In this document: piece after piece, positions 20,266 through 27,032 of the stretch
How the letters are laid out: each line of letters starts with the position of its first letter
Numbering within the stretch: the first letter of the stretch is position 1
Assembly (NCBI GenBank): GCA_041658745.1
Contig: JBAZZP010000002.1
Span: 76,833-140,832 of the forward strand
DNA length: 64,000 nt
Origin: Candidatus Margulisiibacteriota bacterium
GTDB lineage: Bacteria > Margulisbacteria > WOR-1 > O2-12-FULL-45-9
Direction of reading: 5' to 3'
Position numbers and translations under genes: made by a program
The notes under the pieces: model-generated
The model's input: the letters and a program-made list of their open reading frames with translations, nothing else
Database searches by the model: none
What the model was told of the DNA's origin: nothing

Positions 20266-20751
20266 ATGGGTAATTTATCTATCGCTGAAAGATCAGGGGC
20301 CTCTCCTATTATGGATGAGAGATCACTGAGACAAGCATATCAATATGCAAAAAGTCAAACAGAAGGACAATCTGCAACTGAATTAAGGATAAACGCTGTA
20401 ACTTCGATGTCAGAAACTGACCGTAGTTTTAGTACTATATCCGAAGAAATTGAAATAAAAGAAAATGCTAATGTTAATCGATTACTCAGGCAACAATTAA
20501 GAATAACCGATGTTAAACCAAATGGGGAGACTGAGTTTGCTATTGATTTAAATTACGATGGAATTAATGATAAGGCATTCGTCACGCTAAGAGAACATGA
20601 CACTTTTGATGCTTTAACCGGATTCTTTAGCCGCTCTCAAATGACCTGTTACTATTTCGACTTGGGACCAAAATCCGGTATTGATTTGGTATATTTATCA
20701 ACAATAAATAGTTTTAGCAAAACCTCCCCTAGCGATACAATTTCTGAATAA
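20266..20751 (+). CDS. Hypothetical protein (no signal peptide)
   Basis: 161-aa ORF with a GGAG RBS. First gene of the plus-strand island; no recognisable motifs. Confidence 0.45.
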   Translation: MGNLSIAERSGASPIMDERSLRQAYQYAKSQTEGQSATELRINAVTSMSETDRSFSTISEEIEIKENANVNRLLRQQLRITDVKPNGETEFAIDLNYDGINDKAFVTLREHDTFDALTGFFSRSQMTCYYFDLGPKSGIDLVYLSTINSFSKTSPSDTISE

Positions 20752-20765
20752 GGGAAATTAAAATA

Positions 20766-21548
20766 ATGGGAGACGCTGTTTCTTTGGTTCCTTCACAACC
20801 GCCTCGTGCCATTGTAACTGAAGGGAAATTAATTGTTCGACCCCAAGTTGATCATGCAACACTTGATATTGATGCTCAAAATTACGCTGACCAGCATCCC
20901 ACTGAACCGGTAATTGTTATCAGTAAATCGAAAAAACTCTTATATTTTTTTAAAAACGGGATTTTGGTTAATGATTATGTGAACTGGGGAGATTACGAAC
21001 CATTTTTTGCTAATACTCCCACGACAATCGAAATGTCTTTCCCTGTTCCGGTTGCGCTAGGGATTGACCAACAAGGTAATTCTACCGCTTTAGCCGGACC
21101 TAAAAGAAAAGCCGGCGACAGGAGAACTCCCGAAGGAGAATACGCTGTCTGTAATAAAAGACAATCCCCTTCTTCTAGCTTTACCGTATTTTTAGATGTG
21201 AGTTATCCCAACATCCAAGACGCTGAAGCTGCTTTTAGCGCTGGTATAATAAATAAAGCTCGTAGAAATTCAATCATCCAAGATAATGTAATCATGCAGC
21301 AAAGATTTGCTGCTCATTCTGGTGGATATTGTCCTTCAGGTGGCCCAATGGGAGGATTAATTGGGATTCATCCTCAAGCGGCAGAACAATATCCTGAGGT
21401 TATAATAAAAGAAGCTACAGTATCTGCCGGAGGACAATATGTTACTGGATCTGACTGGACATTTGGCTGTATTGCCATCGAAAATCGGCATGCTAGATAT
21501 TTATGGCAGGAAGCTCCGATCGGGACAAGGATCTTAATCCTGCCGTAA
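20766..21548 (+). CDS. L,D-transpeptidase (YkuD)-like domain protein, no signal peptide
   Basis: VIVISKSKKLLYFFKNGILV ... DRRTPEGEYAV ... WTFGCIAIENRHARYLWQEAPIGTRILI follows the YkuD fold pattern (strand, TP.G.Y, catalytic GC[IV]). The canonical His-Gly-Cys is replaced by Phe-Gly-Cys. Confidence 0.45.
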   Translation: MGDAVSLVPSQPPRAIVTEGKLIVRPQVDHATLDIDAQNYADQHPTEPVIVISKSKKLLYFFKNGILVNDYVNWGDYEPFFANTPTTIEMSFPVPVALGIDQQGNSTALAGPKRKAGDRRTPEGEYAVCNKRQSPSSSFTVFLDVSYPNIQDAEAAFSAGIINKARRNSIIQDNVIMQQRFAAHSGGYCPSGGPMGGLIGIHPQAAEQYPEVIIKEATVSAGGQYVTGSDWTFGCIAIENRHARYLWQEAPIGTRILILP

Positions 21549-21549
21549 A

Positions 21550-24059: not shown

Positions 24060-24785
24060 ATGTTAAATATTCCATCAATTTCTAATTTATTATTCCAGCA
24101 TACATCATCATTTATTGGTAGTAGCAAAGAACCATCTATTACTCCAACTAGAAATACTCCAATGATCTATACGGAAGGAACGTATTTTGGTTTAGATTAT
24201 TCTATTGTGTCTCTGAATCCTGATAAAATCAATTTTACGTTTTTACAAGAATCTGAAGCACAGGACAATGAAACCAATCCAGCCAATAATTCCATTGTTT
24301 TTAATGGGGGCTACTTTAATGATCAAAGAAATCCAGACGGGCTATTAATTTATGACAATTTGCCTTATTCTCAAATATCTGATAAAAAAGTTATGAGCGG
24401 AGTTTTTTCAATATATAATGGAAGAGCAAGGATTGATCGAAGTGTGTCCTTTACCCCAAACCGAAATGTAAATTTTGCTATCCAAAATGGCCCATTAGTT
24501 ATTGAACATGGGGAAAGGGGAATATTAAGTGACACCGAAAATGAATTTGAAAGGACAATTTTGGCTACAGACTATTCAGGCAATGCCTTTTTGGTAATTA
24601 TCAAAACTCCTGTTGACTTGTATGATTGTCAGGATTTACTAATTGATAAAATACCAAATCTTGATTCTGCTCTAGATCTTGATGGGGGCCCATCAACTTA
24701 TTACAGATACCACTCGTCCACTAGCACCGCCTCTTTTGGAACCTTAGGTTATCCAGCCTACTTTATTAAAGCCTCAATAAAATAA
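24060..24785 (+). CDS. Phosphodiester glycosidase (NAGPA/DUF2233)-like protein
   Basis: VFNGGYFNDQ ... DGLLIYDN ... ALDLDGGPST matches the NGGFF and NLDGGGS motifs of the NAGPA family. No signal peptide. Confidence 0.45.
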   Translation: MLNIPSISNLLFQHTSSFIGSSKEPSITPTRNTPMIYTEGTYFGLDYSIVSLNPDKINFTFLQESEAQDNETNPANNSIVFNGGYFNDQRNPDGLLIYDNLPYSQISDKKVMSGVFSIYNGRARIDRSVSFTPNRNVNFAIQNGPLVIEHGERGILSDTENEFERTILATDYSGNAFLVIIKTPVDLYDCQDLLIDKIPNLDSALDLDGGPSTYYRYHSSTSTASFGTLGYPAYFIKASIK

Positions 24786-24847
24786 ATTTTTATTGCAAGT
24801 TTTCCTCTAATTAACCCGATATTCAATATAGATGGAGGAAATATACA

Positions 24848-26128
24848 ATGGGTGATTATCAAATTGGATCTTATGGTTTATACCCAAGCTACCTTATTCC
24901 TTCTCCCCCAGTTACGGGACAAGATAAAAGGCAAGAAATTTGCTGCGATGAAGCTCTTTGGAATGTAGGGACTCAGTCTTGTGGTTCTCCCTTATCTGAA
25001 GAAAGTAATGCCATAAGGTTATGGGAAGCCGAAGGGCTATCTCCATCATCCCAGGCAATTCCGACTCGTTTGGAGAAATTATCGCAGGTTTACCAAAAAG
25101 CTGTGAAAGATAATGCAGTAGAATTAGCTCAAAGATGCCAAATATTAGCCATGAAATATGTGCAAGCAGCAGAAAAGTCTAATATGAACAGGGAATCAAT
25201 TCGACCATTAGCTGAATCAATGGGAATATATATCCCAAGATCAAGAGGTAGGATTGCTGGGGTGGCACATGTTGCTAGCCTTTACAGCAGTAATTCTTCT
25301 GGCACATCGATGAAAATACAAGCAAACCTAATTGATAGTGGGCAGGATCCTCAATATATCAATGCTGATCTTTCCTTTACATCTGAAACCCCCATACTGT
25401 TTGGTGGTCAAGGGGTTGCGGGTATAGATATAAGCCTTCTAATTGATGGGACCCCTACCATAGTTGGAAAAATTATTGTTGTTGACCAAAATATTGCATC
25501 CTTAGAATATCTTCCGAAAGAGATGAATGGTCCAAAAGCAGCTCAAGAAGGATGGATCGTATTTAGTTCAGCAAATTATTCAGTGACTGTTGGTAATTAT
25601 CCGAACTGCACAACTGTTCCTGGAACAATTTCAATTAGAGATGGGATTCCATCTAACTTATATCCATCTTCATCTACCGGAGCAGTGGTTATTAGAAATG
25701 GAGTACCAGAAATACTACAAGCTAATCCCGATGAAATGGTAGCACTTGCCGCAGAGGCGATGTCTTCTGGCGGGACAATGTTTCAGAGCCATTTACTTGT
25801 TCACAATGGTGAGAGTATTGTCCCAACAAGCTCAGATACAGATCGAGATGTCCGCCGAGTATTGATTACCCTGGATTCAGGCGGGTTTGCACTTGTACAA
25901 ATAGACGAATTTATTACTTTATATGAATTATCAAAAATAATTGAAAAAATACCAAATATAAAAGAAGCAGTAAATTTAGATACCGGTGGAGGGAATGTCG
26001 GTGGTTATAGGACAATAGATCAGTCAAATGGTCAATATACCCCTTTTGGAGACGGATCTGAGCCTGGAGAATTTGATGATAGCAATCTTGAAGCAGATGC
26101 GTTTATTGGGGTAAGGCAGCGTCAATAA
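24848..26128 (+). CDS. Hypothetical protein with a C-terminal phosphodiester glycosidase (NAGPA)-like domain
   Basis: The C-terminal RRVLITLDSGGFALVQID...LYELSKIIEKIP...AVNLDTGGGN matches the NAGPA C-terminal core. The N-terminal 250 aa are unassigned. No signal peptide. Confidence 0.45.
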   Translation: MGDYQIGSYGLYPSYLIPSPPVTGQDKRQEICCDEALWNVGTQSCGSPLSEESNAIRLWEAEGLSPSSQAIPTRLEKLSQVYQKAVKDNAVELAQRCQILAMKYVQAAEKSNMNRESIRPLAESMGIYIPRSRGRIAGVAHVASLYSSNSSGTSMKIQANLIDSGQDPQYINADLSFTSETPILFGGQGVAGIDISLLIDGTPTIVGKIIVVDQNIASLEYLPKEMNGPKAAQEGWIVFSSANYSVTVGNYPNCTTVPGTISIRDGIPSNLYPSSSTGAVVIRNGVPEILQANPDEMVALAAEAMSSGGTMFQSHLLVHNGESIVPTSSDTDRDVRRVLITLDSGGFALVQIDEFITLYELSKIIEKIPNIKEAVNLDTGGGNVGGYRTIDQSNGQYTPFGDGSEPGEFDDSNLEADAFIGVRQRQ

Positions 26129-27032
26129 AAGCTTTTATTAGCGGCAAAGTCAGGCTATTATAATTGCCCAATATGTTGTTTCTTTCTTCAATTGTCATAG
26201 GTGCAGAAAAAAAACTCTTGTTAATTTCTTCTGCGGGTAAAAGCTCAGAGTTTCGATTGTAAATTTGTATTTCTATTCCAAATATATCATGGCAAATATC
26301 AATAAAACTATTGGAATTGTAATATCTGTATGCCTCCGAAGTTCCTCTGAAATATTTACTAATATAATATTGAACAAAAACAAATTCAAGCATTTTTATG
26401 TCTGGGCTTGATAGCAGACTAGTGACTCTTGGATTGGCTTGCTGAAAGACACCAAACTGTTTAATAAATTCTTGCGTAGGTAAAGCTTGCTTTGTTTTTT
26501 TCATTCGAATAAAGAACTTTTCAGTGCATATTATTTCTTCATTTGTTTGAGAAGATAAAAAGGCTACAATATCCGCTTCTGAAGGGATATCATCCAAATT
26601 TATTGCATAATCAGCATGAAATTGATCAATTTTACTACCAAAGGGGATGCTAAGATGAGTGTGGAATGGAATAGTCCCTGCGGGCTTATCAACAAAGTCA
26701 ATTCCCTGACTTGAAGAGGAGGGAGAATTTATAACAACTAGTGTGTAATTTGAATCATAATATCCATAAAATTCCTTTCCAATTGCACTGGAAAGGTTTT
26801 GTGTTTGCCCTATTCTAGAAAAGATATCTTCTTCACTCGAAAAAGATTCAATTCTGCAAGCATAATTGTCCGCTAATCTTTCACCTGGGAAAAAACTGAT
26901 TACTGGACATAATAAACTAGTTATAGAGTTAGAAGAAGCACAGGAATCCAATTGTGTAAAAGCAGGATTTTGAAAAACAGTTTGATTCCCGACGAAAGAG
27001 GCAATACACCCAACAGGCATTTGATTCTCCAA
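26103..27032 (-). CDS. Hypothetical protein
   Basis: 309-aa ORF convergent with the 24848 gene, 26-nt 3' overlap. No signal peptide and no recognised domain. Confidence 0.4.
   Translation of the reverse strand: MENQMPVGCIASFVGNQTVFQNPAFTQLDSCASSNSITSLLCPVISFFPGERLADNYACRIESFSSEEDIFSRIGQTQNLSSAIGKEFYGYYDSNYTLVVINSPSSSSQGIDFVDKPAGTIPFHTHLSIPFGSKIDQFHADYAINLDDIPSEADIVAFLSSQTNEEIICTEKFFIRMKKTKQALPTQEFIKQFGVFQQANPRVTSLLSSPDIKMLEFVFVQYYISKYFRGTSEAYRYYNSNSFIDICHDIFGIEIQIYNRNSELLPAEEINKSFFSAPMTIEERNNILGNYNSLTLPLIKAFIDAALPQ

Follow-up and report, generated by a model that had tools for sequence, protein, structure and literature searches.

A compositionally distinct gene block of an uncultured Margulisbacteria member encodes cell-wall-enzyme-like proteins devoid of export signals

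The YkuD (L,D-transpeptidase, LDT) and NAGPA (phosphodiester glycosidase) protein families are overwhelmingly extracytoplasmic. Where, then, do members of these families act when they have no export signal? The question is raised by a block of six genes, hereafter called P1 to P6, found at positions 20266-27032 of a 64,000-nucleotide stretch of DNA (the window) from a Candidatus Margulisiibacteriota bacterium (assembly GCA_041658745.1, contig JBAZZP010000002.1). Margulisbacteria are a poorly known, uncultured phylum, sister group of the Cyanobacteria. An earlier note, made from the sequence, described the block as a six-gene island of signal-less proteins, two LDT-like and two NAGPA-like, and suggested either an arsenal exported by a non-Sec route or a novel envelope-remodelling module, two proposals that we regard as plausible. 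The block is composed as follows.

20266-20751, plus strand: P1, 161 residues (open reading frame, ORF, listing)
20766-21548, plus strand: P2, 260 residues, YkuD-family (YafK/DpaA-like) LDT-fold protein
21550-23886, minus strand: P3, 778 residues, from a family restricted to Margulisiibacteriota/WOR-1 that has an LDT-type Cys loop; gene convergent with P1-P2
23887-24059, no strand: divergent P3/P4 intergenic region, AT-rich (22% GC)
24060-24785, plus strand: P4, 241 residues, NAGPA/DUF2233 phosphodiester glycosidase domain
24848-26128, plus strand: P5, 426 residues, unassigned N-terminal part and divergent NAGPA-like C-terminal domain
26103-27032, minus strand: P6, 309 residues, orphan

The six ORFs have the coordinates and the sizes (161, 260, 778, 241, 426 and 309 residues) given in that note, and a motif search of the translations located all the motifs that it quoted, in P2, P3, P4 and P5. 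Neighbouring ORFs of at least 150 codons are almost all on the minus strand, and the block itself is of mixed orientation, as had been described. The corresponding NCBI locus tags are WC890_01965-01990.

One feature sets the block apart: usually extracytoplasmic families are represented here, consistently across independent samples, by proteins that have no export signals and keep their catalytic residues. We tentatively favour a Sec-independent release of the block proteins, which would act on wall polymers, because the P3 family is otherwise Sec-exported, because one of its subclades has gained a partner and an N-terminal domain, and because the block looks accessory. The evidence comes from three or so metagenomic samples.

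Signal peptides were searched for with a hydropathy heuristic, not a dedicated predictor, using the mean Kyte-Doolittle value of 12-residue windows starting in the first 45 residues. The N-terminal maxima of P1 to P6 range from 0.36 to 2.08, and no transmembrane (TM)-like segment was detected in any of them, the 19-residue window never exceeding 1.45. In the same scan, four comparison proteins (a lipoprotein, an outer-membrane protein (OMP)-like protein, ZupT and a DUF4349 protein) gave 2.77-3.44, with clear N-terminal hydrophobic segments. By hydropathy only, neither P2 nor P3 has a signal peptide, a lipobox or a membrane anchor. The absence of signal peptides from all six proteins thus held up in maximal ORFs.

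Might wrong starts or assembly errors have hidden the signal peptides of what are in fact ordinary periplasmic enzymes? Automated gene calls do disagree on the starts of P1 (146 residues from M16 in NCBI), P3 (768 residues) and P6 (305 residues), but these alternative starts are all downstream, and the maximal ORFs still lack hydrophobic N-termini. Because each ORF was opened at the earliest start codon following a stop, re-annotation cannot uncover a signal peptide further upstream. The earlier note had named the emergence of signal peptides on re-annotation as fatal to its idea, and none emerged when the starts were re-examined. Moreover, the orthologues in a second metagenome-assembled genome (MAG) and the P5 homologues are likewise devoid of signal or TM segment, the independent orthologues being colinear with equally non-hydrophobic N-termini. 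This agreement between maximal ORFs and homologues argues that signal-lessness is not an annotation artefact. Neighbouring genes code for proteins with canonical signal peptides, which indicates that Sec signals are normal in the source organism, and we therefore regard missed signals as highly improbable.

The largest protein, P3, had been considered an orphan. This does not stand: a word-index search returned P3 alone, and an exhaustive HMMER search yielded 43 relatives, most of them with Sec signal peptides. All relatives with a named taxon are from Margulisiibacteriota or WOR-1, one more being labelled just 'bacterium', and annotations as 'L,D-transpeptidase' or 'YkuD domain-containing' occur among them. 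The probable start of P3 is the ATG at position 23856 (M11), which would give a protein of 768 residues: an AGAGGA Shine-Dalgarno-like sequence is present in front, public gene calls have this length, and the homologue P0009 harbours a matching internal Met. The family occurs in single- and double-module forms, the module being approximately 500 residues long. The parts of P3 are the following.

23554-23826, minus strand: N-terminal extension, aa 21-111, two beta-alpha-alpha-beta units (AlphaFold2, predicted local distance difference test (pLDDT)) at the position of the family's Sec signal
23263-23418, minus strand: catalytic-loop segment, aa 157-208, corresponding to the C-terminal third of the YkuD domain
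22837-23157, minus strand: beta-rich part, aa 244-350, similar to the first two-thirds of YkuD, yet located after the Cys loop
21598-22836, minus strand: remainder, with a mixed beta/alpha part (aa 351-520, conserved ARWGSxDFG) and an all-alpha part (aa 521-763), from the AlphaFold2 model and conserved columns

The motif SHGCIHMSPSD spans aa 175-185 (23332-23364). In a 31-sequence alignment of the family, S175, H176, G177 and C178 are invariant in 25/25 members covering them and H180 in 26/26, so that the SHGC nucleophile loop is conserved, and the family profile aligns this Cys loop to the LdtMt2 loop 'TSHGCLNVSPSN'. The Pfam YkuD profile gives P3 a score of 16.7 bits, below its cutoff of 23.4, over profile positions 116-141 only. 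YkuD matches at E <= 0.01 were obtained for 15 of the 31 family members, and all those that we inspected (P3 of the window, P0005, P0007 and five native-order constructs) are limited to the last ~30-48 profile positions. P3 does not have the canonical linear order of beta part, His, 14-17 residues and (S/T)HGC, since its Cys loop comes first, and the family alignment shows no conserved His upstream of that loop. In single-module relatives, the Cys loop is typically found ~30-35 residues past the signal peptide.

To look at this order from the profile side, the Cys-loop segment was relocated behind the beta part in five family members, which were rescored against YkuD. Native-order scores of 16.9, 23.9, 23.9, 23.4 and 19.8 bits became 22.7, 30.3, 27.6, 25.3 and 21.4 bits, respectively, whereas controls with shuffled beta parts gave 14.3-15.7, 25.7-26.4, 18.8-19.4, 15.3-16.9 and 14.9-15.1 bits for the same five. 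Profile coverage was discarded as evidence, since some shuffled controls also spread over the profile, and score differences alone were used. Because the re-permuted scores exceed those of both native order and shuffled controls, the P3 family appears to harbour a circularly permuted YkuD domain. In the papers that we searched, there was no report of a permutation in a YkuD domain or of wall effectors in Margulisbacteria. The AlphaFold2 model of P3 is confident; no significant Foldseek match to it was obtained in the PDB or BFVD, and we scored P3 as having the LDT three-dimensional fold.

Eight relatives (P0010, P0011, P0013, P0014, P0015, P0017, P0020 and P0022) are two-module proteins of ~900-980 residues, the first module of which often lacks the SHGC Cys motif (it reads, e.g., SNGDIH, SRGEVF, DDGNLI or TRGGLH), whereas the second retains SHGC. 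This suggests that the N-terminal module of these proteins may be catalytically dead.

Outside the closest subclade of P3, signal-peptide-like N-termini are present in 30/30 of the N-terminally complete relatives, which points to an extracytoplasmic substrate for the family; other entries that seem signal-less are truncated gene calls. The genuinely signal-less members are only P3 of the window, P0009 (48% identical) and two copies at locus L029 of the second MAG, GCA_041665245.1. In these copies the catalytic motif is intact, and they share an N-terminal extension of ~150 residues, in which AlphaFold2 predicts the two units listed above followed by a disordered linker (aa 112-133). This extension is conserved in P0009 and P0050. 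A scan of metagenomes with the N-terminal alignment of the subclade returned only the contig already known. The signal-less P3 genes and genes encoding the P1 domain are paired convergently, tail to tail, in 3/3 cases (once in the window and twice at L029), whereas P3 members of the Sec type are coded by solitary genes amid housekeeping genes.

Three further observations concern the N-terminus and copies of signal-less P3. At L029, 7861-10019 (JBAYJF010000013.1), one P3 paralogue has its N-terminal domain (7861-8085) out of frame with its body (8151-10019), with SHGCIH intact; it may be either a frameshift pseudogene or an assembly error. The beta-alpha-alpha-beta topology of the N-terminal units fits LysM, a relationship that we do not claim, as sequence and profile support it in no way. 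Finally, the first ~17 residues of the signal-less proteins (aa 11-27; 23806-23856) close with [ST][GA]G (ATG, SGG, TTG or TAG) before the folded domain, and residues -4 and -7 from this motif are hydrophobic in P3 of the window and the L029 and L030 homologues. This recalls a double-glycine leader, but the pattern is too weak for us to retain that idea, and no ABC transporter with a C39 peptidase was seen in the window.

The partner of these P3 proteins is defined by P1, an acidic protein (pI 4.7) whose gene is preceded by an AAGGAG Shine-Dalgarno sequence. It has no match in Pfam, NCBIfam or the PDB. Its conserved motifs are LRQAYxY, a DLxxDGxxD loop at aa 94-103 (20545-20574) and YYFDLGxxxGIDLVY at aa 129-143 (20650-20694). 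MAG GCA_041665245.1 encodes a 410-residue fusion protein whose N-terminal ~150 residues are P1-like and are followed by a P2-like YkuD half (40% identity), and also a standalone 180-residue P1 homologue. P1 thus appears as a partner domain of LDT-like proteins. The DL(D/N)xDGxxD and YYFDLGxxGxGIDLVY loops of the P1 family resemble Ca-binding or FG-GAP-like turns typical of extracellular proteins, without profile support. P1 was considered as a known Ca-binding, FG-GAP or dockerin-type module, given that its DxxxDGxxD loops are alike, yet it gave zero profile matches and this likeness is a lead only.

P2 is recognized by Pfam YkuD (PF03734) with 47.2 bits, above the cutoff of 23.4, over profile positions 2-146 of 146, and NCBI already names it 'L,D-transpeptidase family protein'. 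Its motif FGCIAIENRHARYLW corresponds to aa 233-247 (21462-21506 of the window). The candidate catalytic residues, His202 and Cys235 (TFGC), align to IHG and TKGC of a compact YafK-like LDT from a Thiothrix plasmid, so that P2 is predicted to possess the (S/T)xGC loop with its upstream catalytic His. Relative to this compact homologue P2 carries insertions of 32 and 11 residues, and its His-to-Cys gap is 32 residues, versus roughly 17-21 in canonical LDTs, owing to an insertion. The NCBIfam equivalog NF040599 (LdtF_DpaA_YafK) matches P2 locally, with 25.6 bits for a cutoff of 365, and the match to the DpaA structure (PDB 8ikr) is weak.

P4 gave a clear match to Pfam NAGPA (PF09992; 49.1 bits, cutoff 25, profile positions 4-146 of 169), with the motifs NGGYFND at aa 82-88 and DLDGGPS at aa 206-212, and NCBI already names it 'phosphodiester glycosidase family protein'. 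The NAGPA family has an invariant DGGGS motif with the catalytic Asp (PMC13474241); in the D-G-G-P-S of P4, the Asp, two Gly and the Ser are retained and the third Gly is replaced by Pro. P5 consists of ~240 N-terminal residues, helical with a conserved ARECQ motif and no assigned fold, and of a NAGPA-like domain at aa ~242-409 (25571-26074) that harbours NLDTGGG at aa 376-382. It has no Pfam match, NAGPA included; BLASTP (E 5e-7) and hhalign (E 5.6e-5, probability 66%) both show homology between its C-terminal half and P4. Searches of 5.8 billion proteins gave just two P5 homologues, both signal-less, one of which, P0003, reaches 21.2 bits with NAGPA, below the cutoff of 25. The loops of the family, DTGGGN in P5, DTGGSD in P0003 and DTGGGS in P0004, keep the Asp and depart from DGGGS by an inserted residue. 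An AlphaFold2 model of P5 based on three sequences had a pLDDT of 48 and was unusable. On the contig of P0003, the 3' end of a P4-homologue gene precedes the P5 homologue, and an unrelated gene follows, which shows that P4-P5 are a conserved pair without P6.

The domain assignments of the earlier note were therefore essentially right: the HMM searches that it called for found PF03734 in P2 and PF09992 in P4, both above the Pfam cutoffs, and P5 is a distant NAGPA-like paralogue of P4, with the reservations that Pfam does not detect P5 and that P3 is sub-threshold. As the annotations of P2 and P4 were available from NCBI, what is new is P3 as a lineage-restricted, apparently permuted LDT-like family in which a folded domain replaces the signal peptide in a rare subclade, together with the P4-P5 pair and with P1 as a partner domain that can be fused to P2 and whose gene is paired with that of P3.

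The sixth protein, P6, matches itself only in homologue searches and has no match in Pfam, NCBIfam, PADLOC, PHROG or the PDB. The final 26 nt of the P5 gene are also part of the P6 gene, which follows zupT in the same orientation. A JAB/MPN-like peptidase was considered from the pattern FHTHLS...PSEADI with a long insert (about aa 123-160), and this candidate was rejected, as neither Pfam nor the PDB supports it.

Do these six genes belong together? Among the 54 ORFs of at least 150 codons that were analysed, they are among the seven with the lowest GC content at third codon positions (GC3), P6 having the low GC3 of the remaining block. The mean GC3 of the block is 0.266, compared with 0.369 +/- 0.037 (Mann-Whitney p = 1.5e-7), and this deviation makes the block compositionally distinct, i.e., more than a chance grouping. 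Within it, two independently conserved modules, P1-P2-P3 and P4-P5, and the orphan P6 can be distinguished: in the second MAG the P1-P3 module is found without P4-P6 and in a different neighbourhood, and P4-P5 occur elsewhere without P6. The 'island' is real as a compositionally distinct block, and is best seen as these two modules and an orphan. Its distinct GC3 and the different neighbourhood of the module in the second MAG are consistent with an accessory, transferable module. A repeat scan revealed no convincing direct or inverted repeats flanking the block, and the 64-kb window contains no tRNA genes or Rfam RNAs. The intergenic region 23887-24059 had been described as an AT-rich divergent promoter region. 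It is indeed AT-rich, and promoter-like hexamers occur on both of its strands, in numbers weakly above expectation (37 versus 25.7 +/- 4.7 in shuffled sequences), none being individually significant. The atypical composition may extend to ~17.4 kb, as the bordering lipoprotein and OMP_b-brl-like genes have GC3 values of 0.32 and 0.29.

An atypical composition, a P6 without relatives, an apparently frameshifted P3 paralogue in the second MAG and an altered catalytic motif in P5 would also be expected of horizontally acquired genes that are decaying and no longer functional. We find this improbable, as the ORFs are long and intact (up to 778 residues), invariant catalytic residues are kept at 31-48% identity between samples, the gene pairing is conserved and the AlphaFold2 model of P3 is confident.

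No secretion, holin or immunity gene that would discriminate between export and a cytoplasmic action was found in the region covered here. Upstream of the block are found mreB and genes for a SPOR protein, a Mur ligase, a Xer-type recombinase, a NUDIX protein and an M42 peptidase, then thiL and genes for a Big_5 lipoprotein and a small OMP-like protein. Downstream are zupT, hom, prs, a DUF4349 gene, a type II secretion system/type IV pilus (T2SS/T4P)-like cluster with a secretin, and then many two-component genes. This gene content indicates that the source organism is a diderm with normal Sec signals. Secretion genes were checked in precomputed Pfam tables covering ~10 kb upstream of the block, all of the window downstream of it and ~10 kb beyond the high-coordinate end.

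Several features of this neighbourhood are described here in their own right. The T2SS/T4P-like cluster (31064-41320) looks complete, with two T2SSE ATPases, T2SSF, secretin, a PilM/PilN fusion and four or five N-methyl pseudopilins, and the DUF4349 gene (30102-31037) lies beside it. Signalling genes are dense at 41813-50040, 52844-54184 and 59625-61736, encoding PAS/GAF histidine kinases (one of 949 residues), at least six single-domain response regulators, a sigma54 activator and HisKA_7TM kinases. Bordering the block, 17428-20133 encodes a 699-residue lipoprotein with a poly-Thr linker, Big_5 and C-terminal repeats, and a 174-residue secreted OMP_b-brl-like protein with KPKVVV repeats. A 29-nt inverted repeat (16351-16379/16423-16451; 83% complementary, 43-nt spacer), located in the gap that separates the M42 peptidase gene from thiL, has no Rfam match. 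When species-representative genomes were searched with Hom, the neighbouring homoserine dehydrogenase, only Clostridia loci with 42-47% identity were obtained, and no close relative.

A remnant of a phage or tailocin lysis cassette, whose endolysin-like hydrolases would be freed by a holin or by lysis, could account for signal-less wall enzymes, since endolysins are typically signal-less and join wall-binding and catalytic domains; the low GC3 suggests a foreign origin, and P2 has a match to phrog_17304 (E 0.0024), the best of the PHROGs matches, all weak. Yet no TM or holin-like protein is encoded in the block, and there are no phage structural genes and no integrase-att or repeat boundaries, the sole integrase-family gene (13764-14639) being ~6 kb upstream amid housekeeping genes. 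No relatives of P2 or P4 were found in IMG/VR, tblastn searches with P2, P3 and P4 gave no match in 50,697 phage records, and BFVD yielded no significant structural match to P3. The relatives of P3 are chromosomal and Sec-secreted, in a housekeeping context. This origin is therefore largely refuted and, to us, unlikely. PADLOC similarly returned zero matches for all six proteins at E <= 1, and tblastn against plasmids only generic family members with 27% identity.

The domain identities, the missing signals, the distribution of the P3 family, the gene pairing and fusion and the deviating composition are observations. Returning to the Sec-independent release that we favour, we infer from there the substrates, the export and the roles of P1 and of the P3 N-terminal extension as follows. 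The block would combine two lineage-restricted wall-enzyme modules that lost, or never had, Sec or Tat signals. The Cys-His enzymes would attack L,D bonds (meso-diaminopimelic acid (DAP) to D-Ala, or DAP-linked) of peptidoglycan stem peptides via a thioacyl intermediate, and the NAGPA-type enzymes would cleave sugar-1-phosphodiester links of wall-attached glycopolymers. An extracytoplasmic substrate is most likely, because the relatives of P3 are Sec-exported, and the signal-less subclade might reach it independently of Sec, in the cell's own wall in the manner of an autolysin or in that of a neighbour in the manner of an effector. The P1 domain and the N-terminal extension of P3 may serve as adaptor, chaperone or inhibitor.

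A number of observations weigh against this scenario. P4-P5 and P6 do not accompany P1-P3 in the other MAG, so that a single function for the six proteins is uncertain. The Pfam tables contain no genes for a type VI secretion system (T6SS), a type III secretion system, an extracellular contractile injection system, a type I secretion or peptidase-containing ABC transporter, or a holin, and the sole secretion-type cluster is the T2SS/T4P-like one, which would normally handle Sec or Tat substrates. No adjacent immunity-like gene was identified, nor a signal-bearing small gene within the block. The N-terminal extension of P3 is, according to AlphaFold2, a confidently folded domain and not a typical disordered secretion signal, and a chaperone or immunity protein would not usually be fused as P1 is to P2 in one genome. 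The motif spacing of the Tlde1 effectors (see below) is not that of the block proteins, and localisation was judged from hydropathy alone.

Part of this evidence would suit the main rival explanation, in which the proteins remain in the cytoplasm for cell-wall recycling or precursor editing. The YkuD-fold proteins would then be L,D-carboxypeptidases or amidases whose substrates are imported muropeptides or UDP-MurNAc-peptides, comparable in function to LdcA, and the NAGPA-like pair would cleave sugar-1-phosphodiester fragments of glycopolymers inside the cell. The lack of export signal or membrane anchor in the six proteins and in their orthologues from other samples, the absence of secretion, holin or lysis genes nearby and the folded N-terminus of P3 all fit. 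Against it, the remainder of the P3 family is Sec-exported, and the YkuD and NAGPA families are overwhelmingly found outside the cytoplasm. No ampG, nagZ, mpl, anmK or murQ-type genes are located beside the block in either MAG, its atypical codon composition points to an accessory function more than to core metabolism, and its distribution is very rare, in 2-3 samples only. We hold cytoplasmic recycling to be a less likely possibility, one that nevertheless deserves consideration.

Should the Sec-independent release that we favour be correct, a bolder version of it may be formulated, which we regard as doubtful. Signal-less P3 and the P1 domain would constitute an unrecognised Sec-independent delivery or activation system, with P1 or the N-terminal domain for recognition or as adaptor, maybe linked to an epibiotic or predatory lifestyle, and P3 would represent the first L,D-transpeptidase fold reported to be circularly permuted, with a Cys-x-His arrangement. 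LDT-fold enzymes matter in cell-wall architecture, beta-lactam tolerance and interbacterial killing, and a lineage-specific family with a seemingly permuted catalytic domain in a ~500-residue module would widen the structural range of this fold. The swap of a Sec signal for a folded domain and a partner domain represents a natural experiment in the re-targeting of wall enzymes. It could point to an undiscovered export route in an uncultured phylum, or indicate that a fold regarded as extracytoplasmic is put to use in the cytoplasm.

How does the block compare with known systems? LdcA is a cytoplasmic L,D-carboxypeptidase of muropeptide recycling that belongs to peptidase family S66, with an unrelated fold and Ser-His-Glu catalytic residues. 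As it cuts the meso-DAP to D-Ala bond in the cytoplasm, it is a functional analogy only; we found no sequence relationship with it and no adjacent recycling genes.

YafK/DpaA (LdtF) is an amidase of the periplasm with a YkuD fold, which releases Braun lipoprotein from peptidoglycan. The best sequence similarities of P2 in this study are to this group (NF040599, 8ikr and the Thiothrix plasmid homologue, in which TKGC and IHG align to TFGC and IGIH of P2), from which P2 differs by its low equivalog score, its insertions, the absence of a signal peptide and its P1 partner or fusion. Relative to the YkuD LDTs more generally (PF03734; LdtMt2, Bacillus subtilis YkuD and Enterococcus faecium Ldtfm), P2 and P3 have neither signal peptide nor lipobox. 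In P3, only the last ~30 profile positions are in native order, with the beta part after the Cys loop, and ~600 further residues have no known counterpart. Its invariant His at Cys+2 takes the place of an Asn in LdtMt2, and there is no conserved His 14-17 residues upstream.

The Tlde1 proteins of the Salmonella T6SS are signal-less LDT-fold effectors that are delivered to the periplasm of another cell and act on its peptidoglycan (PMC9638812), and their defining motif is H-X-X14-17-(S/T)HGCh (PMC9638812). They share the signal-less LDT fold with the block proteins and set a precedent that loss of a Sec signal can mean contact-dependent delivery. The motif is found neither in P2, with about 29 residues from His202 to TFGC, nor in P3, which has no conserved upstream His; no T6SS or periplasmic immunity gene was identified nearby, and P3 is four to five times larger. 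Because the defining motif and the T6SS context are both lacking, the block does not belong to the Tlde1 family.

Lastly, with respect to the NAGPA/DUF2233 proteins (PF09992; human uncovering enzyme and bacterial homologues), P4 and P5 are devoid of signal peptide or anchor. P4 has DGGPS, and the P5 family DTGGG[N/S/D] together with an N-terminal extension of ~240 residues. P4 keeps the catalytic Asp in its DGGxS loop, P5 keeps the Asp and a Gly-rich loop, and the two form a conserved tandem pair.

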